In this document: positions 21,695-57,994 of the stretch, piece after piece
How positions within the stretch are numbered: position 1 is the stretch's first letter
Layout: each line of letters begins with the position of its first letter
Origin: Candidatus Bathyarchaeota archaeon
Lineage (GTDB): Archaea > Thermoproteota > Bathyarchaeia > Bathyarchaeales > Bathycorpusculaceae
Direction of reading: 5' to 3'
Assembly (NCBI GenBank): GCA_963702095.1
Contig: OY969706.1
Span: 768,001 to 832,000, forward strand
Length of the DNA stretch: 64,000 nucleotides
Translations under genes and position numbers: made by a program
The notes under the pieces: model-generated
Told to the model about the DNA's origin: nothing
The model's input: the letters and a program-made list of their open reading frames with translations, nothing else
Database searches by the model: none

Positions 21695-22022
21695 CTATAG
21701 GAAGACGATTTGGTTTAGCATTTCCTGTGTTGACTTGGTTTCAGCGATAAGTTTTAGTTTCCTTATACATTCGCTGACTGTGTACTTGGCGATGGACAAA
21801 AACAATGCCGCAATGTCTTCGGTTTAGGGCTAATTTGAGAAAATCAGAATCATGCGTAAAAATAACCGCGCCCTTCTCTGCAGCTACTTCAAGCTGCTCA
21901 TCATCAGTCATACCCAACCTGTGGAGGTCTCTAGCCGAAAAAGCATCCACCCCACGCCTCTTCAACCCCTCAACGATTGCAACGTTAACGCTTTCATCAG
22001 CGTATATCTTGAGCGATTTGAT
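21695..22022 (-). pseudogene. DUF5615 PIN-like toxin, frameshifted and lacking a canonical start
   Basis: IKSLKIYADESV...LKRRGVDA...IFTHDSDFL...HCGIVFV, then KYTVSECIRKLKLIAETKSTQEMLNQIVFL* in another frame from ~21786; begins with ATC. Confidence 0.75.
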
Positions 22023-22028
22023 ACAGAA

Positions 22029-22313
22029 TCATCTGCCTTTCGGGGGTTCGACGAGTTTTTCGATGAACTCTTTATCTTCCTTGATTTTCTTATCCAACTC
22101 AGCTCTGTTCTCGTAGTAGTAGGAAAGTGCATCGTGGACTTGCTCCAACTTCAAATGGGGAAACATAGAGATTATTTCATCTGGAGAGCGATTAAGATAC
22201 TCATACTCAATAACTATGTCTACGATCCTTATTCGAGTTCCAGCTACCACTGGACTACCATTACATATTTTGGGGTTAACTGAAACATAAGGATGCACTA
22301 TCTTGCTTTGCAA
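22029..22313 (-). CDS. DUF433 antitoxin-like protein
   Basis: NPKICNGSPVVAGTRIRI...SPDEI...FPHLKLEQVHDALSYY. Confidence 0.88.
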   Translation of the reverse strand: MQSKIVHPYVSVNPKICNGSPVVAGTRIRIVDIVIEYEYLNRSPDEIISMFPHLKLEQVHDALSYYYENRAELDKKIKEDKEFIEKLVEPPKGR

Positions 22314-22628
22314 ATTATGACACTTACAATTAGAGATGACTCTAGAAACTCTTAACTTTTGTTATAAATAGCAAGTTGCCGTCACACCTCTCATTTCCAA
22401 CCAATGCCACCTATCCCTCTATAGGTTATGCAACGAAATTCTTATATGCTCCAAATATGTTGGCGGCAGCCTCATCCCTCTATAAGAAACAACATAGAAC
22501 CACTAATAGAACCAAATATGTTGGTATATTCTTTATTTGAGCAGCTATCGACGCAACTTGAACAACCTATAATAGAAAAAATAAATTTTGCAAAAAATAT
22601 TATGCGCTTGGTTGTATAATTAACAAGC

Positions 22629-23122
22629 ATGGATATCTCACCTATAGTTATTGTAATCCTGCTTTGCCCTCTATTTTGGGTTGTCTTAGTATACATAATC
22701 TCAAAATTGTTTGGGCAAAAATCGCGCGCTCCTTCTCCCTCCTATGGTATTCAATCCCTCACAGAAAAAGGTGAGGTAGTTAGAAGCTTTTCAGAGAAAA
22801 AATAGCCGACTATTTCAGAGCAAACAACATCAGGTACTGGTACGAACAATCTGACGACCCCTCCATTTACCGTCCTGATTTTTACTTGCCCGATTATGAT
22901 GTTTACGTTGAATTCTGGGGACTGCTAGATGCCGACGATCCGTGGACGAGGCAAAACTATGAGCGGAATATGAGGAGAAAAATGGCTATCTACCATAAAA
23001 AACACAAGCGACTGGTGTCCATTTACCCAAGCAATTTAGAGAATCTCGACTGGATTTTCCGTACTAAGTTTAGGTCTTCAACCGGCTTTGATTTGCCAAA
23101 CCAAGGCTTCTTTAGTGGCTAA
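22629..23122 (+). pseudogene. Membrane-anchored PD-(D/E)xK-like nuclease, split at an A6 run
   Basis: MDISPIVIVILLCPLFWVVLVYII...GEVVRSFSEKK* continues in -1 frame IADYFRANNIRYWYE...YRPDFYLPDYDVYVEFWG. Confidence 0.7.
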
Positions 23123-23124
23123 CG

Positions 23125-23892
23125 CTAGAGAAATTCATATTTCTTGCTTACAAACCACATAAAGCCATCAACGGTTGTAAGGTCGCTCTTTGTTTCTTTG
23201 ACTATATCCTGAAATGTTTGATTGACTCGCTTGTAACTTTCTCCGAAGTTATCACTTGGAAAAGTTGCCCTGTGTAATTTTTTGAGCGTATCGACTGTTC
23301 TGCTATTCCAAACGCCATACTTTTCATTATTGAACGTATGGAGCAACGCTGTAACTATTCCTTCGCCAATTCCCGCAACTTTAGCACAACCCTGTAGTGC
23401 ACTTCTAACCCTAACACCAATTTCGATGTTTTCATTCTGCAGAGTAGCAAGCAATTTAGCTATATTTTGAGGGTGTTCTATTGCATTTGTTGCCGTCCGT
23501 TCTAGCATCGTCCAAGAGAAGTTATTCCTGAAGTGAAGCCAGCTTTCAAAATTGCGTTGAAGCGTCTTAAGGTCATTTAATCGTTCGGGCGCAAATTTAT
23601 AGCGATATTCTATGTAGACTTCCTTGCGTTTTTTAACCCATAGATCGACATTTGAAAAAGTTCTTCCAGCACTAATCTCTATTGGGCTAGAAATGTAAAT
23701 TGGCCAAAGTTTTCCAATGAAGGCGTCTGCGGGGGATATTAGCTCCCGAGTACCCTCTTCATCGACCTCTAGGGTATCAATATAGACTTTTTCTAAAAAG
23801 CCTCCGCAGTTGGGGTCAGAGCAGAACATCAACGGTTTAATAACTGTTAACGGGAATTCTTGTGAACATTTAGAGCATCTATACTTTATCAT
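23125..23892 (-). CDS. Hypothetical protein, N-terminal zinc ribbon plus HhH-like domain
   Basis: CSKC...CSDPNC; KVAGIGEGIVTALL hairpin-like motif; C-terminal VDGFMW. Confidence 0.7.
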   Translation of the reverse strand: MIKYRCSKCSQEFPLTVIKPLMFCSDPNCGGFLEKVYIDTLEVDEEGTRELISPADAFIGKLWPIYISSPIEISAGRTFSNVDLWVKKRKEVYIEYRYKFAPERLNDLKTLQRNFESWLHFRNNFSWTMLERTATNAIEHPQNIAKLLATLQNENIEIGVRVRSALQGCAKVAGIGEGIVTALLHTFNNEKYGVWNSRTVDTLKKLHRATFPSDNFGESYKRVNQTFQDIVKETKSDLTTVDGFMWFVSKKYEFL

Positions 23893-23913
23893 ACGAGACT
23901 ACTGTTGTTTACT

Positions 23914-24081
23914 TTATATTAGCTCGGATTCTAACTGCTTCACTTGTTTCTTTAGTCCTTCATTTTCTAATTCTAACTCCTTAATCCGAGTGTTCAATCG
24001 GTAAATCTCGTCATTGCAAGCATTTACCTGTGCTTGCATTCGATTTTTAACCACCCAAGACGGGGCTCCACCGTATCCCAT
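23914..24081 (-). CDS. 55-aa coiled-coil microprotein
   Basis: Manual translation MGYGGAPSWVVKNRMQAQVNACNDEIYRLNTRIKELELENEGLKKQVKQLESELI; TATA-like tttaaa ~20 nt upstream. Confidence 0.6.
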   Translation of the reverse strand: MGYGGAPSWVVKNRMQAQVNACNDEIYRLNTRIKELELENEGLKKQVKQLESELI

Positions 24082-25358: not shown

Positions 25359-26546
25359 TTAGGTTCGGGCATGAATCTCAATGATATCTCCATCGTCTAA
25401 AATAAAATTCAACCCCACCTTCTTGGGGCTAAACGGCAGCCGCTTTGCCCAAACCATCGCAAACATGAAGTTCGACAGCAACTCTTTATGGATGTTTTTG
25501 GCTAACTCGTTAACTGTGGCGCCCTTTCGCAGTGCAAAGGGGTGGTCGCTGTGCACTTTGTTCCCTGGTTCTTTGGTGTAAATCCGAATCATCCCCAAGG
25601 ACTCGAAAATCGCTTTTCCCAGTTCCGGTATGCCCAGTTTGCGTTCACAGGACATGGGCACGATGGGTAATTTGTCGGCTACATACGTCTTGAGCCGCCG
25701 CAGATTAGCAGCGGTGCCAGGCAAATCCAGCTTGTTAGCCACAATCACCGCGGGCTTGTAGATGGTGTTTTCGTAGATGGCGTCCTCCACGTCTCCGAGT
25801 GATACTTCGCCGCTTATGCGGACGATGGCATCGTTGATTCGGTAGTTCCGCAGCAGATCCTCAACATCATGCAAACTGCAGTTTAGCAGTCTACCCACCA
25901 CAATAACACGGAGCCTAGACCCAGCGGGGCGCCTATCAATCTCTACGCGTCCACCAGTGGGTTTACTAACCAAAACACGGCTCTTCTCCAACTCCGCCAA
26001 AATCAACTTCAACTGCTCCACGGGGTCACGGCTTAAATCAAGCATCAGAATTAAGCCGTCAGCGTTACGCGCCAACCCCAACGTGACGTTGCCGCCAGCT
26101 TTACCCTCCGCCGCTCCCTCCATAACAGCGGGCGCCTCCACAATTTGGAACTGCACATCCATAAAATTCATGATACCCGGCACCGGTTCATGGGTGCTAA
26201 ACGGCGTAGGAGTGACAACCACTTTGGAGTTTGTTGTCGTAGACATCAAGCAGCTTTTACCCACATTAGTCATACCAACCAACGCGACCTGCGCCGCCGC
26301 AGCTTTCTCAATGAAAAGTTTCGGTCCGCCGCTGCTTTTGCCGGTGCCCATCCGCTTCTTTTTGTCCAAGTCGTCGCGGATCAACGCGATTTTGCGGTTC
26401 ATTTCGCCCCGAAGCTTCATGGTGCCTTTATGATGCGGAACATACTTCAGGAACTCTATCATGGCATCCATTTTTTCTTTAGGAGTACGGGCAGCTTCTA
26501 CTAGCTCCCACTTATCCATCGCTTCAGGCGGCAGATTCGTCGGCAT
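25359..26546 (-). CDS. DRG/OBG family GTPase with TGS domain
   Basis: MPTNLPPE N-terminus, GMTNVGKS, ANKLD, IRIYTK, DGDIIEIH. Confidence 0.9.
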   Translation of the reverse strand: MPTNLPPEAMDKWELVEAARTPKEKMDAMIEFLKYVPHHKGTMKLRGEMNRKIALIRDDLDKKKRMGTGKSSGGPKLFIEKAAAAQVALVGMTNVGKSCLMSTTTNSKVVVTPTPFSTHEPVPGIMNFMDVQFQIVEAPAVMEGAAEGKAGGNVTLGLARNADGLILMLDLSRDPVEQLKLILAELEKSRVLVSKPTGGRVEIDRRPAGSRLRVIVVGRLLNCSLHDVEDLLRNYRINDAIVRISGEVSLGDVEDAIYENTIYKPAVIVANKLDLPGTAANLRRLKTYVADKLPIVPMSCERKLGIPELGKAIFESLGMIRIYTKEPGNKVHSDHPFALRKGATVNELAKNIHKELLSNFMFAMVWAKRLPFSPKKVGLNFILDDGDIIEIHART

Positions 26547-45777: not shown

Positions 45778-47038
45778 TTGAAAATTGAAGTTTTGGGAGG
45801 AGCCAGAGAAGTCGGCGGCTCATGCATCTCCGTCGTAACAGACTCAGCTAAAATAGCGCTGGATTATGGCGCAAAAATCGACGATGTTATACCTAAAAAG
45901 TTGCCGAAGGATTTCGACGCCGTATTTATCAGTCACGCCCACCTGGACCACACTGGTAGCCTTCTGAGCTTATGCAAAAACAACAGCCCAACTATAGTTG
46001 GCTCAGAAATAACCCGTGATGTAACTGTTGACCTTCTCCACGACATGGTCAGTATTCAACAGGAAAAAGGCAACCTAGAATTCGACGACAGTCACGCAGA
46101 AAAAGTGAATAACTGTTGGTGGAGCCGGGACTCCGTTGCGTTGCCCGGTGTCAAGGTTATGCTTCAATCTGCCGGTCACGTTGCAGGCGCAAAAATGACC
46201 AGTTTCGAAGCAGAAAAGAAACGGGTCATTTACACAGGAGATTTCTGTCTTCACGACTCGGAGATACTTCATGGCGCTAAACTCGAAACGCTTCCTAAAA
46301 GCCCCGATCTGCTGATTATGGAATCGACTTATGGCGGAAAAGTTACGCCAGCCCCGTCATGAATTAGTTGACACGTTTATGCAGCAGATGCAGACGGTTA
46401 TGGATCGCAGAGGCAACATTTTGATTCCCACCTTCGCGTTCCACCGCAGCCAAGAAATGGCAAAGCGGATTGACACAGCCATAGAACGTGGAATATTGCC
46501 CCGCTACAACGTTTACACGATCTCTAACCTTGCCCACCGCATAAACAGTTACTTCAACCAAAACAAGCAGCTATTCACCAAAGAAATAAAGCAGCAGAAA
46601 CAGCCCTTCAACTACCGCCATGTCAAGCACCTGTACAGGACTAACCAGATTAAGGAACCAGCCATCGTTGTATGCACGTCAGGGTTTGGCCATGCAGGCG
46701 CAAGCCTACGTTTACTATCTGATTGGTCACAGGACAAAGACAACTGCGTCATCTTAACATCTGGGTATCTGCCTCCTGACAGCCCGCTTAAGCAGGCTAA
46801 GGAAGAGGGTTTCTTCAAAACTGAAGAGGAAGTGGTGACTATGCGTTCGGAGATATGCCAGATTGAACTTTCAGGCCACGCAGACCAAGTGGAGCTTGTA
46901 AAGTTCATCAGCAAGTTGAAGCCCAAACAGACCCTTCTTGTCCACGGCGACCTAGAACAGGCAGAGTTGCTGTCTGAACAAGTTTCAAGTTTGACCGATG
47001 TGGTTATTCCCAAGCAGAACGAGGTCTTCGACGTCTAA
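45778..47038 (+). pseudogene. MBL-fold beta-CASP ribonuclease split by a one-base frameshift
   Basis: GGAREVGGS, SHAHLDH, AGH, YTGD, MESTYG in frame 1; IPTFAFHRSQE, LSGHAD, LVHGD in frame 2; junction at 46335-46360. Confidence 0.85.
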
Positions 47039-48276
47039 CTCTGCTGGGTTGACCTAAACCTCAACAACGCCGCTAAGCCTCCCAAAGCGTTAAGTGACTT
47101 TTTCTCTTCTGAAGACGAAGAAATCACTTCAACACTCGCATTGCTCTGCACAGCCAAATCCTCCAACACATCCACTATGTCTTTTTCCCGCAACTCGTAT
47201 GAGGTTGCCCCGCATTTCTGGCAGGGAATCGCTATCATTTCTTGTGCAGCTTGAGTTTTATTTGCGGACAACTCCTTTTTGGGTGTCCCACATTTCTTGC
47301 ATACTGCATCGATTTCAGCTATGTCGGTGTTGTCGGCGACTATTGCCACTTGCACTTCAGCCTTGTTTAGGGCGTTTATCACTTGGTCCAATCCGTAGGT
47401 GGCTAAGCCGTCTGGTTTGCGTAGTTCCGAGAACAGGCGCTGCATGATTTTTTGCTCTTCGGGTCCACACATGTTCTTGAGGAGTTCTTCGGATTTGCAG
47501 ATGACTTCTTTGATGCCTGCTTTATCGACGGATTGGGTGTCCACAGTGTCCAGCAGCATGTTGGAGAGTTCATAGTGCAAAAAGTCGCCTTTCAAGAAAT
47601 CGTTTTTTGTTTGCCCCGGTCCGCCCGCCAATAAGACGTTGACTTGTTTTTTCAGGAAGTTCTTGACTGCGTGTTCTGCGACGCGGTGGAAGAACGCTGT
47701 CAACTCCATGTCGCGTTCTCTTTCGTATCGTCTCTGGCTCTGCCCGCCTTTCCTGGTTTTGCCCGGAACACCCGAGGAGATATTATCCACTACTTCGAGG
47801 TGTTCACCGGTGAGTATGCCGAAACTGGCGTCTTTCGCGTCTAGGGTGAGGATTCCAACGATTTTTGGGTCTCTTAGCATTTCCCGTAGAGGCTCTAAAT
47901 GGAAGTAGTCGTCAACATTGAATTGGTAGGTTGTCAGTGGTTCTGGGGGAATTATGGTTTCAACGGTTAAGGCTTCTTTCTCTCCCCCTGATACGTGTGT
48001 TCCAGCGAAAACCGCCAGCCCATTCTCAGAAGTCTCTTTCAGCTGCCTCAGATGTTGCATAGTGCCTTTAAGAGTGGCTTGAAACCTGTCGTTTAGCCGC
48101 TCCGACCCTAAGTTAATTGATTCCAATTCCTTCTTTAGAAAAGCAACCGACTGGTCCAGAGAGGCTACAAAAGGAACATAGAATGAGACGAATTCTCGCC
48201 CTTTCCCCTGCAAGTCGGATAGGCGTGCGATTTGTTTTCTGAGTTTATGCTGTTTCACTGAGTTAGTTGATGCCAA
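47035..48276 (-). CDS. aRF1/eRF1-family peptide chain release factor paralog with degenerate N-domain motifs
   Basis: VPGKTRKGGQSQRRYER, GGPGQTKNDF, ATYG, zinc ribbon, LGGLAALLRF; NIKS and YxCxxxF absent; probable TTG start at 48276. Confidence 0.88.
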   Translation of the reverse strand: MASTNSVKQHKLRKQIARLSDLQGKGREFVSFYVPFVASLDQSVAFLKKELESINLGSERLNDRFQATLKGTMQHLRQLKETSENGLAVFAGTHVSGGEKEALTVETIIPPEPLTTYQFNVDDYFHLEPLREMLRDPKIVGILTLDAKDASFGILTGEHLEVVDNISSGVPGKTRKGGQSQRRYERERDMELTAFFHRVAEHAVKNFLKKQVNVLLAGGPGQTKNDFLKGDFLHYELSNMLLDTVDTQSVDKAGIKEVICKSEELLKNMCGPEEQKIMQRLFSELRKPDGLATYGLDQVINALNKAEVQVAIVADNTDIAEIDAVCKKCGTPKKELSANKTQAAQEMIAIPCQKCGATSYELREKDIVDVLEDLAVQSNASVEVISSSSEEKKSLNALGGLAALLRFRSTQQS

Positions 48277-48372
48277 CTGGCAAGAGTAGAAATGGGTGTT
48301 TCTGTTGACGGACAAATCTGAAACCTTAACTATACTATGGCACCGCAAAATTCAAACCTATCGCATCAGAGC

Positions 48373-49990: not shown

Positions 49991-50340
49991 AACTCAGTGG
50001 GTATATCGCCCGCCTTACCCCCTTTTTAACAGTAAATCACGTTTTTGTTCTCTCTCTTTGAGTGGATTTGCCAGTATATACCGAAGCTGTCTTCAAAATA
50101 ATTCAGGAGAGTTCGGTTTTTCACAAAAAGTTTCAATTCTTATGCCAGTCAGAACCAAGCTAAGCCCCATAATCATGCTTTCGTTTGCTAAATTAGCCGT
50201 AACTTGTTACCATTAATGCTCAATTTTGCATTGTAATTCTATGTTTTACAAAGATTGATTTGAAACCTGTGACATATTCTTATCGTTGAAATATAGGTTA
50301 AAACACTGGTTGACAGTGGAACTTCAAAGAGTGAAACAGT

Positions 50341-50589
50341 ATGTCAAACGATTCTGCTCCAGAAGATTGGTCCAACCGCCGAACTGCAACACTAGACTTT
50401 ATAATTAAAAGTTTAAAGGAACACGAGCAAAATCTAGATAAGCTGATCGGTAAACTGATGGAACTCAAGCAACAGATAGATGATACAAAAGAGGTCTATA
50501 GTCGCTTCGAAGAAATAGAAGTCAGCATCGGCAATTTGGAAAGCGAAATTAAACGCTTAAGCGGCTACATCTCGGCTTCAAAAAAATAG
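50341..50589 (+). CDS. Small coiled-coil protein
   Basis: LDFIIKSLKEHEQNLDKLIGKL heptads. Confidence 0.7.
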   Translation: MSNDSAPEDWSNRRTATLDFIIKSLKEHEQNLDKLIGKLMELKQQIDDTKEVYSRFEEIEVSIGNLESEIKRLSGYISASKK

Positions 50590-50690
50590 CGCATTGTGGT
50601 GCACGCCTCTTAAGATGCATTTTTTGAGTGTGTTTGTTCTTGGGATATATTCATGCATATTACATATTTTTATAAATATGTTAGAGTATT

Positions 50691-51008
50691 TTGCTTTGTG
50701 AAATAACAGTTAAGATAAAAGAAAGGAAGTGGGATATCACGATAGACCTCAAAGAGAATAAGAAAATCAGTCAACTGTATGAACGGACAGGGTCTAGGCA
50801 TCCACAGAAAAACGGGTTTGCAATTTGCCCAGAATGTGGACAAGAACTTCTTATCACACCGACACTCTTAGAAATGAGTCAAGTGATCGAAAACCACGTT
50901 GACTTACATAAGACTGTTTACCAATCCGACTCTTCCCTCGAGGTCACTAAACATCTACGGATTCGGCTCTCTTTGATGTGGCAGGTTTTAGATCAAAAAG
51001 GAATATAG
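50691..51008 (+). CDS. Small C2H2-like zinc-binding protein (start uncertain)
   Basis: CPECG...IENHVDLH. Confidence 0.6.
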   Translation: MLCEITVKIKERKWDITIDLKENKKISQLYERTGSRHPQKNGFAICPECGQELLITPTLLEMSQVIENHVDLHKTVYQSDSSLEVTKHLRIRLSLMWQVLDQKGI

Positions 51009-51049
51009 TGATTGACCAGTTCTCGCGGGCCAAACGGTACTTTTCTGTT

Positions 51050-51395
51050 CTCTCTCTTTGTGTGGGTATGGCCGTTTACGGGGCACCACAAGAAAGGTTG
51101 TGTGAGTGATTGTTTTTTTGGGGAAGCATTGTTTTTTGGCGTCTGTTTTGGTGTGGGAAGTGCGTTTTCCACCACACAACCAACATCCCATGCAGAAACC
51201 ACTCCCGTGTGAATGTGAAACCACGTATCGTTTGCTTTCTTAGCGACCGACAGAGAACAGCAAAAAACAGCACAACACAGATCAGGCACCAACAACCCCC
51301 ACACAAACCCAGCCCCACCCACAAAACACAACCCCCATCCAGAAAACCCCACAAAACAAACACAAATGTAATTCTGATAAAAGTCAAAAAACAAA
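51050..51395 (-). repeat. Dispersed element family A, copy 5 (long, diverged)
   Basis: Reverse complement has gtgtgg...ccacaccaaaacagacgccaaaaa and cttgtggtgccccgtaaacggccatacccacacaaag; AC-rich flank aligns with copy 3 flank. Confidence 0.88.
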
Positions 51396-51405
51396 AAATC
51401 ATGTG

Positions 51406-51666
51406 TTAAATGTATGCTTCATCGTGGTGGGCATACTTTATTATTTGTACAGTTGAGGGGTTTTCTGTCACTCGGTATATGAGTACAAATGATCCTGTGT
51501 GGACTCTGCGGAGGCTTTCTATGGGGTGTTTTAGGGTTTTGAATTGGTAGGGGTCGGTTAGGACCTGGTTGATTTTCTTGTTTATAGCCTCTAGTTGTAC
51601 TCGGTCTTTTTTGAGGAGTTTGTGGAAGGTTTTTGAGACTTCTGCTTCGATTTCAAGGCTGTACAC
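51406..51666 (-). CDS. RelE/ParE family toxin
   Basis: MYSLEI...KTLKHP...LRRVHTGSFVLIY...HHDEAY. Confidence 0.85.
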   Translation of the reverse strand: MYSLEIEAEVSKTFHKLLKKDRVQLEAINKKINQVLTDPYQFKTLKHPIESLRRVHTGSFVLIYRVTENPSTVQIIKYAHHDEAYI

Positions 51667-51670
51667 GCAA

Positions 51671-51907
51671 TCACTTTAGCCCGTACTCTTCCGCGAAATC
51701 CTTAACTTTTATGAATTTGCCGTTTTTGGCGGTAGCTTCTATTTCCGCTGCAAACTCTGGTCGTAGTTGGGGTTCCAGTTCGCATTCTTCATAGCGTTTG
51801 ATGATTATGCTTAGGGCTTGGCTTTTGTCTTTGAGTCCGTATTTTGCTTTGACTATGTTGATTACTCGGTTCTCCCGATCATCTATGTCTATGACGTTTT
51901 TTACCAT
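51671..51907 (-). CDS. DUF2683-like antitoxin
   Basis: NRVINIVKAKYGLKDKSQAL...LRPEF; directly upstream of RelE. Confidence 0.8.
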   Translation of the reverse strand: MVKNVIDIDDRENRVINIVKAKYGLKDKSQALSIIIKRYEECELEPQLRPEFAAEIEATAKNGKFIKVKDFAEEYGLK

Positions 51908-52216
51908 TTGAACCGCCTTCAATTACGCCATGTAATTGCGTGTAACTAGAGATTATTTAATTATTGTCGATGTGCCCAAATTAAACGGGAAAAAGATAAG
52001 GTGGGCTTAGGTGTGTGGGATTGCTCTTTGTTGTTTTGTTGTAAGTGGGTTTGGTGTTAGAGGGTTTGGGCTTGTTTTGTTCTGGTGTTTTTCGCGGGTT
52101 TTTGGGTGTGTTTCTGGGAAAGTTTAATATGGTTTATAGTCGATTGGGGTTGTATTAGCAGGTTCAACTTGTAGTAAGTAAATACTTAACAAGTCTGCAT
52201 GGAGAAGGTGGGGTAA

Positions 52217-55939: not shown

Positions 55940-57994
55940 ATGCCAAAAAAAGACTTCACTAGCTTCGACCTCGCCGCCGCAATCAAAGAACTCCAGCCTA
56001 CAGTGGCTGATAGCCGAGTGAACAACATCTACCAATTCGGCGAAAAAACCCTCATATTCAAACTCCACAGAACCGACATGCCGCCCATACGCCTTGTTGT
56101 TGAAGCAGGCAGAAGACTCCACTTAACCAGTTACGCCGAGGAAAGCCCCGCTGAACCACCACCGTTCTGCATGACCCTGCGCAAGTACCTCCGCGACTCA
56201 TGGCTAAGAACAGTCGTCCAATATGAGTTTGAACGCATAGTCACCCTAACCTTCGAAACCAAAACAGGCTTGCTCCACTTGGTTGTGGAGTTGTTCGGCG
56301 ACGGCAACATGATATTAACTAACGAAAAAGGCACTATCATCCAAGCTATGTACTTCAAGCACATGCGTGACCGAGACATCCAACGCAACCAACCCCTGGT
56401 TTATCCGCCGGCAAGCGGCAGAAACCCCTTCAAAGTAACCGAGCAAGAACTCGAAGAAGGATTGCGCAAGGCGGATGATGCGGAGGTTGTGCGTGTGTTG
56501 GCGCGGTTTCTGGGTTTAGGCGGCGTTTACGCTGAAGAATTGCTGCTTCGGGCAACCGTTGAGAAAATAAAAAAATGTAACGCCCTAACGACTGAGGATG
56601 TTTCAGCGCTCTTTGGTGCCTTGCAAGGATTGCTTTTAGCTGTAGCTGAGACAAAGTTTGAGCCAAGCATCATCCTCGACAACGAAGATGGTTTCGTTGA
56701 TGCGGTGCCCTTCAAACTTAGGCGCTATGAAGGCTGCAAAACCCAGCCGTACCCGACCTTCAACGCCGCACTTGACGAGTTCTATCTGCGGGTAACTGCG
56801 GTGGAGAGGGCAGCGGGCACCGTAGAAGTTGACAAGTTAAAACAGGAAGCAGCGCGGCTCAAACGCATGGTCGCCGACCAAGAGAAATCGATCGCTGAAG
56901 AAGAAAAGAAAACGGCGCGGGACAAGCAAATCGGCGACACCATCTACGCCCATTTCAATGAACTCCAAACTTTTCTGGAGCAACTTCTCAAAGCCAACAC
57001 TCAGGGCTACGATTGGAAGGCGATTGTGGCGCAGGTTATGGCTGCTAAAAAAGCAGGCAAATCCCCCATGTGTTATGTGGAGTCGTTTGATAGTAAAAAC
57101 CTCGCTTTGAACCTAGGTGTGGACGGCTACAATTTCAGTTTGACTCTGCGCAAATCCCTCTTCGACAACGCTAACGAGTACTATGAGAGGGGGAAGCGGG
57201 CGAAAGAGAAATCCCAAGGGGCTTTGGTGGCTTTGGAGGATTCAAAGACGAAACTGGCGCGTGCAGAACGCGAACTCCGCGGGGCGGAAGAGCTCAAAAG
57301 CCTCAAGCCCGCCCAAATCATGGAAGCCCTCTCTAAACGCAAAGAAGAAATGGCCAACCGCGAGTGGTATGAGAAATATCGTTGGTTCACCACCTCCGAC
57401 GGTTTCTTGGTGGTGGCGGGCAAGGACACGGTAAGCAACGAAGTGCTCATCAAAAAAAACACTGCCCAAGAGGACATGGTATTCCACGCTGAAATTACGG
57501 GGTCGCCCTTCGTTGTGATAAAAGCTGAAGGCAGACCCATAAGCGAACAAGCCCTCAAAGAGGCGGCTGAGTACGCGGCGTCTTTTTCGCGTGCTTGGCG
57601 GGAGAACGCGGGTTCAGCGGACGTTTACTGGGTTAAGGTTGACCAACTTAGCAAGAGCGGCCCCAGCGGTGAATCCGTCCCGCACGGCGCCTTTTTTGTG
57701 GTGGGCAAACGTAACTGGTACCAGAATACGCCTTTGCGGGTTGCAATTGGCGTATGTGTGGGGGAGGAAACAGGGTTTGTCGGCGGCCCAATCGACGCAG
57801 TGAAAGCAAAAACCAAAACTTATGTTGTCCTTCAGCCAGGCGACTATCAGGGCAAAGAGTTGCTGCAGATGATTATGCGTACATTAACCGCGAAACTATC
57901 TAAGGAGCAGAGGGAGAAAGCAGGCAAAACCAGCATTGAACAGGTGCGGGAGTACGTGCCCTACACCAAAGGTGCCATAAGCCCCAAAACCTAG
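55940..57994 (+). CDS. rqcH: Ribosome quality-control factor RqcH/NEMF (NFACT)
   Basis: TSFDLAA, FCMTLRKYL, ELFGDGN, WYEKYRWF, GKDTVSNE, GAFFVVGKRN. Confidence 0.93.
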   Translation: MPKKDFTSFDLAAAIKELQPTVADSRVNNIYQFGEKTLIFKLHRTDMPPIRLVVEAGRRLHLTSYAEESPAEPPPFCMTLRKYLRDSWLRTVVQYEFERIVTLTFETKTGLLHLVVELFGDGNMILTNEKGTIIQAMYFKHMRDRDIQRNQPLVYPPASGRNPFKVTEQELEEGLRKADDAEVVRVLARFLGLGGVYAEELLLRATVEKIKKCNALTTEDVSALFGALQGLLLAVAETKFEPSIILDNEDGFVDAVPFKLRRYEGCKTQPYPTFNAALDEFYLRVTAVERAAGTVEVDKLKQEAARLKRMVADQEKSIAEEEKKTARDKQIGDTIYAHFNELQTFLEQLLKANTQGYDWKAIVAQVMAAKKAGKSPMCYVESFDSKNLALNLGVDGYNFSLTLRKSLFDNANEYYERGKRAKEKSQGALVALEDSKTKLARAERELRGAEELKSLKPAQIMEALSKRKEEMANREWYEKYRWFTTSDGFLVVAGKDTVSNEVLIKKNTAQEDMVFHAEITGSPFVVIKAEGRPISEQALKEAAEYAASFSRAWRENAGSADVYWVKVDQLSKSGPSGESVPHGAFFVVGKRNWYQNTPLRVAIGVCVGEETGFVGGPIDAVKAKTKTYVVLQPGDYQGKELLQMIMRTLTAKLSKEQREKAGKTSIEQVREYVPYTKGAISPKT

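Follow-up and report, generated by a model that had tools for sequence, protein, structure and literature searches.

How many proteins of the eRF1 superfamily does an archaeon use? Archaea are thought to need just two for translation termination and ribosome rescue: a single aRF1 and a single Pelota, each brought to the ribosome by aEF1alpha. The genome considered here, from Candidatus Bathyarchaeota archaeon (assembly GCA_963702095.1), has three superfamily genes: a canonical aRF1, a Pelota, and a paralog of aRF1. The paralog lies on the minus strand at positions 47035-48276 of a 64,000-nucleotide stretch of contig OY969706.1 (positions 768,001 to 832,000 of the forward strand; hereafter, the window). 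What is this third protein for? The best explanation of the comparisons reported below would be that it is a functional aRF1 copy in a new role, one that no longer reads stop codons and whose targets are probably ribosomes paused elsewhere than at a stop.

An intact aRF1 homologue beside the canonical factor

The gene encodes an intact protein of 413 residues, with a TTG start (48274-48276) and a TAG stop. The N-terminus set by this start, MASTNSVKQHKLRK, agrees with the family consensus, MATTNSVKQHKLRK. A longer frame in the list of open reading frames (ORFs), from an upstream TTG at 48348, was rejected because its N-terminal extension has no support from relatives.

The product matches the aRF1 model NCBIfam TIGR03676 with 354.5 bits (cut-off 234.7) over model positions 2-402. 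Pfam recognizes eRF1_2 and eRF1_3 in it, and gives no match to eRF1_1 at E<=0.01. An AlphaFold2 (AF2) model, built on 52 family members, has a mean pLDDT (predicted local distance difference test) of 73.2; its best Foldseek match is the aRF1 structure 4af1 (E 1.4e-32). The N domain of the model superposes on that of human eRF1 (2llx) with a template-modelling (TM) score of 0.84 and a root-mean-square deviation of 2.5 Å. This match points to a degraded N domain of the eRF1 type, not the Pelota type. An earlier note on this DNA, made from the letters and a list of ORFs, had described all three eRF1 domains, the loop GGQSQRRYER, an altered NIKS loop (KKELESINLGSERLN), and the strand YQFNVDDYF in place of YxCxxxF. 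Model match and loop bear this out, and both altered strings occur exactly as it had reported (Table 1).

The genome (G000) is a single 2.94-Mb contig, rated 90% complete. Its canonical aRF1, at G000:C1:274127-275353, scores 512.9 bits and carries GTASNIKS, YRCDSRF, and GGQSARRYE; its Pelota has 364 residues. The gene under study is 39% identical to this canonical copy at the protein level, and so is a true paralog, as the earlier note had supposed.

Loss of the residues for stop-codon reading

The motifs NIKS, YxCxxxF, and GGQ are described as universal in aRF1 and eRF1 (PMC2613156). To what extent does the paralog family keep them? For the comparison, 165 distinct paralogs were set against 55 canonical sequences (21 from Bathyarchaeia and 34 diverse), and a position was counted as lost if it is at least 90% conserved in canonical aRF1 and kept in no more than half of the paralogs. 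Ten canonical-invariant positions are lost, seven of them within the elements that read stop codons: the GTS-loop Thr (T27); the NIKS Asn and Ile (N56 and I57); three residues of the helix behind NIKS (T62, R63, and V66); and the YxCxxxF Cys (C125).

The N, I, and K of NIKS are invariant in all 55 canonical sequences; among the states listed for the paralogs, the Asn column never holds Asn (M48 R17 V16 S15 A13 I13, and others), and 164 of 165 have a gap in place of the Ile, which leaves the loop one residue shorter. The studied copy reads NLGS at this place. The Cys of YxCxxxF, present in 55/55 canonical sequences, is never Cys in the paralogs (V127 I24 A7 T3 L2 M2). On the same strand the Phe is kept in 164/165 and a new His appears in 151/165; the resulting family motif is Y-x-V-D-D-H-F, which the studied copy renders as F-N-V-D-D-Y-F. 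The GTS-loop Thr, found in 54/55 canonical sequences, is mostly Lys, Met, or Arg in the paralogs (K69 M62 R21 T3), and Arg in the studied copy. Variation across the family peaks at residues 41-70, with 26-34 Fitch changes per column; the old NIKS loop lies in this stretch.

Other parts of the protein are retained. Paralogs and canonical aRF1 have 32 invariants in common, among them the two glycines of GGQ, the zinc-ribbon Cys residues, and the C-terminal G...LR (in the C domain: C326, C329, C352, C355, G400, L405, and R406). A further 25 residues are specific to the family and at least 90% conserved, ten of them in the C domain, and an alignment of 52 paralogs has 68 invariant columns. Because the losses are concentrated in the elements that read stop codons, canonical stop decoding by the paralog is very unlikely.

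An invariant loop with a variable glutamine

The sequence K-GG-x-SQRRYE is invariant in 165/165 paralogs. The position x, which corresponds to the Gln of GGQ, is not: its states are Q116 S33 E6 W6 M3 A1 (n=165). Ser, Glu, Trp, Met, or Ala thus replaces Gln in 49 of the 165 proteins, through at least 15 independent changes on the tree. With 15 Fitch changes the Gln column lies at the median of the 411 in the alignment. No change is needed at columns 176-178, 180-185, or 188, and the most conserved block of the protein is SQRRYERERD, with 1.1 changes per column.

The same position can be followed at close range. In a tight cluster of 12 species-level relatives, the Gln codon underwent 4 amino-acid and 8 nucleotide changes, against per-codon means of 0.73 and 1.76, respectively. 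A single-step codon chain, CAG-GAG-GCG-TCG, connects Gln to Ser, and every state of it is present in living sequences. Selection on the surrounding domain persists where Gln is gone: in a sister pair with Ser in both members, the M domain has a ratio of non-synonymous to synonymous substitution rates (dN/dS) of 0.037.

Invariant flanks, a variable Gln, and constrained lineages that have no Gln together suggest that the shape of the loop matters greatly and that the Gln side chain does not. This bears on a step in the earlier note, which had reasoned from an intact GGQ to a hydrolase. The motif is indeed present in the studied copy, and peptidyl-tRNA hydrolysis by this GGQ-bearing protein is possible; the step itself is weakened, since Gln is not conserved across the family.

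Purifying selection throughout

Comparison with the nearest species (G413) gives the paralog a dN/dS of 0.128 over the whole gene, versus 0.059 for the canonical copy. By domain the values are 0.224 for N (canonical, 0.070), 0.069 for M (canonical not estimable, because dS is saturated), and 0.116 for C (canonical, 0.037), so that purifying selection acts throughout. The median paralog value over 142 pairs with dS 0.05-1.2 is 0.19, and the value pooled over 11 phylogenetically independent sister pairs is 0.18, with no region above 0.33. In the pooled data the tip of the former NIKS hairpin is highest (0.33), the sub-regions of the N domain range from 0.19 to 0.33, and the GGQ loop region, residues 168-190, is lowest in the protein (0.059).

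Might this be a redundant duplicate that is decaying under relaxed selection, one of the outcomes that the earlier note had set against its own proposal? The protein does evolve about 2.5 times faster than the canonical factor (dN 0.255-0.263 versus 0.098-0.109 in four more distant genomes), and it is missing from many close relatives. However, the reading frame is intact in every extracted paralog coding sequence, dN/dS stays at 0.13-0.19 with the regional ceiling already given, and the family-specific residues and invariant columns described above persist in a family that spans sequences down to 47% identity. The selection data refute the decaying-copy explanation, which we hold to be very improbable.

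A family with a patchy distribution

All genome counts given here refer to samples of genomes. A word-indexed protein search returned 930 proteins at E<=1e-3. Among the best 120 of these, which are 58-98% identical to the paralog, none has an NI[KR]S or Y.C...F motif; their source names are 'peptide chain release factor subunit 1' or 'aRF-1', one with a Bathyarchaeia label. Species-representative genomes yielded 49 loci with relatives at 47-84% identity, nearly all labelled as Bathyarchaeia or as metagenome-assembled genomes of Bathyarchaeota, and a few with other labels.

Within the class, a sample of 151 genomes has a second, low-scoring, full-length copy in just three: the genome studied, G038, and G141. 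A fourth, G067, has a shorter second copy that scores lower, at 263.8 bits over query positions 5-316, and is interrupted by one TGA. These four genomes are all members of one family, f1, and no second aRF1 copy was found at E<=1e-40 in 130 genomes of the other 29 families. In the 301 genomes of family f1, matches are bimodal, at 52-100% versus 37-40% identity. By a tally of the matches listed, 74 of the 301 carry the paralog type: 54/89 in the genus of the window, and 20/212 in nine other genera. Seven genomes of the family have two paralog copies, and the non-carriers include single-contig genomes (G374 and G406). Carrier assemblies in the genus are larger, with a median of about 2.7 versus 2.1 Mb, a comparison of rounded sizes that is confounded by completeness. 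Stops inside about ten of the paralog matches are read as natural stop codons, since the open frames are at least 422 residues long and the matches run on to the longer C-terminal tail of the query. In all 11 carriers checked (the genome studied, 5/5 of the nearest, and 5/5 from the basal clades), the paralog is found beside a canonical aRF1.

The paralogs form one clade, with 100% support in the SH-like approximate likelihood-ratio test (SH-aLRT), whether the tree is built from 108 rows under LG+G4 or from 83 rows under a C20 mixture model. This clade does not nest within that of canonical Bathyarchaeia aRF1. Its sister is a NIKS-bearing aRF1 (P0125), joined with weak support (20) and 42-48% identical to both groups. 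The paralog may have arisen by an ancient duplication followed by faster evolution, or by transfer. In the samples taken, the paralog family occurs in a single Bathyarchaeia-type family and, beyond it, in only a few basal lineages.

Other lineages have unusual homologues of their own. Four (P0138, P0146, P0174, and P0178) keep NIKS and YxCxxxF, with GGW or GGF in place of GGQ. Another four (P0250, P0252, P0254, and P0256) form a separate clade that has GGQ and no NIKS; three of these also have no YxCxxxF Cys. From these sequences, it seems that aRF1 paralogs have diversified more than once. Many others (P0124, P0126-P0128, P0130, and more) are 500-1450 residues long, and match the query in two or three pieces, with the split at about residue 179/180, at GGQ; likewise, one canonical aRF1 lies within a 929-residue frame, split near residue 113 (G457:C1:1611616-1614348). 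These split homologues look like intein insertions at functional sites.

No sign of recoding

A second release factor could accompany an altered genetic code. Profile searches of the genome for PylS and PylB gave nothing over the cut-off, and none of the 41 tRNAs found by aragorn is a suppressor, selenocysteine, or pyrrolysine tRNA. Open frames of at least 300 codons end in TAA (607), TAG (303), and TGA (227). The genome uses the standard genetic code, and recoding for pyrrolysine or selenocysteine was rejected as the reason for a second factor. Separately, the aragorn output includes one tRNA to which no amino acid is assigned and whose anticodon has four bases, 'ttcg' (G000:C1:1235811-1235888); it may contain an intron or be mis-called.

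Comparison with known factors

With canonical aRF1 and eRF1 the paralog shares the three domains, the eRF1-type N fold, the GG(Q) loop with its basic helix, the zinc ribbon, and the motif GGxAAxLR. It differs through the lost residues of NIKS (Asn and Ile), YxCxxxF (Cys), and the GTS loop (Thr), and through a Gln that varies across the family.

Pelota (Dom34) is also an aRF1 paralog, acts on ribosomes that are not terminating, does not read stop codons, and has C-domain motifs in common with the family. However, the N domain of Pelota is Sm-like and its GGQ loop is missing, whereas the paralog has an eRF1-type N domain and an invariant Gly-Gly; its score with the Pelota model TIGR00111 is 69.7 bits, below the cut-off of 177.65. 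Bacterial ArfB and mitochondrial ICT1, which hydrolyse independently of the codon, offer a possible functional analogy, with a GGQ loop and no reading of stop codons. Their fold is unrelated (a bacterial release-factor hydrolase domain) and their Gln is conserved. The likeness is one of analogy; the paralog is no member of that family.

Balon, a bacterial hibernation factor, and the 'potential archaeal Balon' proteins are eRF1-fold A-site factors that have no NIKS and coexist with aRF1 or eRF1 (PMC10901736, PMC13324472). Balon is further marked by an HP motif in the decoding centre and by a lasso loop near A2602. The archaeal proteins, which have neither NIKS nor GGQ, are reported from Methanosarcinia, Syntropharchaeia, and Thermoplasmatota (PMC13324472); the word Bathyarchae is absent from the main text of that paper. 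Balon-type proteins, as described there, differ in having no GGQ motif at all and in belonging to other lineages, whereas the paralog family keeps an invariant GG. The Balon/Rv2629 model NCBIfam NF052289 gives 30.7 bits (cut-off 320), and of the two losses, NIKS and GGQ, the paralog has undergone only that of NIKS. The NCBIfam acVLRF1 model gives 38 bits (cut-off 125), and the Pfam acVLRF1 match, at 43 bits, lies beneath the stronger eRF1_2 match of 115 bits. With the acVLRF1 model, no VLRF1-like gene was found in the genome besides the two aRF1 copies.

Second copies of aRF1 have been counted before: two copies occur in 4.3% of sampled archaeal genomes (n = 81), unrelated to pyrrolysine use (PMC12626013). 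The same paper cites a study in which Methanosarcina barkeri has two copies and just one of them shows activity, and attributes the second Methanosarcina copy to lineage-specific genome expansion. That protein resembles the Bathyarchaeia paralogs in being a second aRF1 beside an active omnipotent one, and is reported as inactive in vitro (PMC12626013); the comparison is by description. In its accessible text, an article on release-factor paralogs in biological conflicts (PMC6514570) makes no mention of NIKS, aRF1, or Bathyarchaeota. Full-text literature searches gave no description of the paralog family, although its genomes may be listed in Table S9 of PMC12626013, the supplementary list of archaea with two aRF1 copies, or in the supplements of PMC13324472.

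What might the paralog do?

The proposal that we favour, tentatively and with slightly less than even confidence, is that the paralog docks, whatever the codon, in both the A site and the peptidyl-transferase centre of stalled or idle ribosomes. It keeps the three-domain, tRNA-like architecture with which an aRF1 occupies the A site. By homology, the C domain, as in aRF1 and Pelota, would bind aEF1alpha and later ABCE1, and the invariant Gly-Gly loop with its basic helix would reach the peptidyl-transferase centre as it does in release factors. Since the paralog no longer has the residues for U1 and for the purines of stop codons, binding would most likely be independent of the A-site codon, and the targets would be ribosomes that are stalled or idle rather than terminating. 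The factor would plug both sites; the outcome could be protection or silencing, or splitting of the subunits with ABCE1. Tolerance of Ser, Glu, Trp, Met, and Ala with no relaxation nearby suggests that docking, rather than Gln-dependent release, is what selection maintains. Idle ribosomes occupied by factors of the eRF1 fold have a precedent among the structural matches of the AF2 model, in Balon complexes and the CCDC124-80S-eRF1 entry 6zme.

The comparisons show homology, the losses and their pattern, selection, and where and beside which genes the paralog occurs; that it binds ribosomes, in which state, and with aEF1alpha as its carrier, we infer. The genome has one aEF1alpha, and a predicted complex of it with the paralog scored 0.00 in a run that weighs neither way. 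Among the sequencing runs listed for the stretch, four were DNA runs with small shares and none was RNA. A 319-residue EF-Tu/EF1alpha-like protein (G000:C1:1817390-1818346; L106:1066-2025, plus strand) combines EF-Tu domains 2-3 with a G1 motif that is degenerate. It occurs in 93/101 genomes of the genus, with or without the paralog, and was rejected as a dedicated GTPase partner because its occurrence is independent of the paralog.

Several observations weigh against the docking proposal. Gln is still the majority state (116/165) and is present in the studied copy; both glycines are invariant, as a catalytic loop needs; and in the known non-catalytic relatives, Pelota and Balon, the whole loop is gone. 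Release factors with a mutated Gln (RF1, RF2, and eRF1) reportedly retain partial release activity in vitro, so loss of Gln is no proof of loss of catalysis. Nor is there an obviously vacant role in hibernation or splitting, since the genome has, besides Pelota, a 393-residue protein with four CBS domains (G000:C1:903386-904567; L103:682-1863, plus strand) and a weak C-terminal HPF/RaiA-like match (18.9-22.3 bits, below the cut-off). This protein resembles the HibA-type archaeal hibernation factors described in PMC13324472, and a vacant hibernation role was rejected as an explanation on its account.

The points on the loop and its Gln also lend weight to a codon-independent peptidyl-tRNA hydrolase, an archaeal functional counterpart of ArfB and ICT1 that would release the nascent chain on stalled ribosomes through its GG(Q) loop, with catalysis through the backbone and a Gln side chain that is helpful but dispensable. 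The Gly-Gly and its flanks are invariant in every paralog, no other part of the protein has a dN/dS as low as this loop, the residues for decoding have disappeared, and the genome has an NFACT/RqcH gene yet no separate VLRF1-like gene by the acVLRF1 model. On the other side, Gln changes at the rate of an average column, and its replacements include the bulky Trp and the acidic Glu; no characterised factor that catalyses release or rescue is known to have given up this Gln. Non-carriers of the same genus, including the two single-contig genomes, would be without the activity, and there is no conserved link to genes for ribosome quality control or rescue. We hold this hydrolase to be the main rival, though less probable than docking. 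The earlier note had proposed a codon-independent or altered-specificity release factor for ribosome rescue: the paralogy, the constraint, and the loss of decoding hold up, whereas the step to hydrolysis is weakened and the genomic context gives it no help.

Patchy accessory distribution, including the genomes with two copies, and the fast Gln codon of the tight cluster would both suit a conflict-related or regulatory factor whose rival for the A site is aRF1, a tRNA, or a toxin; such a factor might counter a ribosome-jamming effector or modulate termination. Burroughs and Aravind argue that release-factor paralogs are recruited in such conflicts (PMC6514570). Yet PADLOC gives no match for the paralog protein, and nearby it picks up a single small ORF, which matches LmuB twice and weakly (18.3 and 15.9 bits); a defence system was rejected accordingly. 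Viral contigs contain three distant matches to the paralog, at 31-34% identity, and a virus-borne gene was likewise rejected. Conserved neighbours are missing, and no region has a dN/dS near 1, so that a conflict role appears improbable. More improbable still is a terminator of altered specificity, in which new residues would recognize a single stop codon or a stop codon in some special context. Most paralogs keep the equivalents of Glu55, Tyr125, and Phe131 (E125, Y112+F41, and F164 of 165), and the former YxCxxxF strand has acquired a conserved His and Asp-Asp. However, the U1-reading loop has been shortened by one residue and lies within the most variable stretch, the genome has no sign of recoding, and the canonical aRF1 is intact and conserved.

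A bolder extension of the docking proposal, which we regard as unlikely, is a third class of archaeal eRF1-fold A-site factor, with an invariant GG loop in the peptidyl-transferase centre and a freed 'catalytic' position. The Gln position may then be under diversifying selection in some lineages, and the Q, S, E, A, M, and W variants could tune the fate of the peptidyl-tRNA, be it hydrolysis, transfer to a different nucleophile, or simply blockade. Such factors would act on the stalled or dormant ribosomes of soil archaea.

Genomic neighbourhood

The earlier note had taken a tail-to-tail overlap with a beta-CASP nuclease gene, together with RqcH and DRG genes in the window, as a pointer to rescue. 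The overlap is real: the stops of the two genes share four nucleotides. The beta-CASP gene itself is split into two overlapping frames, with the break near a GGAAAAG run; at three related loci (L007, L008, and L010) both halves are in one frame. The split copy could be either a real pseudogene or an assembly indel, and the window assembly has at least one likely frameshift. The RqcH and DRG-like genes are both in the window, though at about 8 kb and 21 kb from the paralog, and neither is a conserved neighbour. Across 49 related loci, the beta-CASP gene stands beside the paralog in 3, and no neighbour family is present in more than 6. Arguments from operon or context were therefore rejected, and the neighbourhood does not point to rescue.

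Two blocks of the window are low in guanine plus cytosine (GC), at 0.40 and 0.39 versus about 0.48 elsewhere (Table 1). One of them contains several small ORFs, including an adjacent minus-strand pair that, as an impression from size and arrangement, could be a toxin-antitoxin pair; PADLOC found nothing.

Table 1. Coordinates of the paralog, its parts, and other features of the window
Feature	Window position	Strand	Remarks
N domain, residues 1-138	47863..48276	-	Predicted eRF1-type fold; decoding residues gone
Former NIKS loop, tip of helical hairpin, KKELESINLGSERLN	48091-48135	-	One residue shorter than in canonical aRF1
Former YxCxxxF strand, YQFNVDDYF	47902-47928	-	Cys replaced by Val
M domain, residues 139-270	47467..47862	-	Pfam eRF1_2, 115 bits
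Loop toward the peptidyl-transferase centre, TRKGGQSQRRYER	47719..47757	-	GGQ at 47740-47748
C domain, residues 271-413	47035..47466	-	Pfam eRF1_3; CxxC...CxxC zinc-ribbon insert; C-terminal GGLAALLRF
Shared stops, CTAA	47035-47038		TAG (-) of the paralog and TAA (+) of the beta-CASP gene
beta-CASP/metallo-beta-lactamase (MBL) nuclease gene	45778-47038	+	Two overlapping frames, 45778-46362 and 46331-47038
NFACT/RqcH gene	55940-57994	+	About 8 kb from the paralog
DRG-like GTPase gene	25359-26546	-	About 21 kb from the paralog
Low-GC block	50001-52000		GC 0.40; several small ORFs
Pair of small ORFs	51406-51666, 51671-51922	-	Within the preceding block
Low-GC block	22001-24000		GC 0.39

Significance

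By annotation, genomes such as this one have 'two aRF1 copies', a count that hides functionally divergent proteins: here, one in which the loop for the peptidyl-transferase centre is kept and stop-codon reading is lost. The family also provides a natural mutational series, Q, S, E, A, M, and W, at the universally conserved Gln of GGQ in otherwise near-identical proteins. This series makes the long-standing question of what the Gln side chain is for a testable one. For the archaea themselves, a conserved third member of the superfamily would add a player to ribosome quality control or dormancy.

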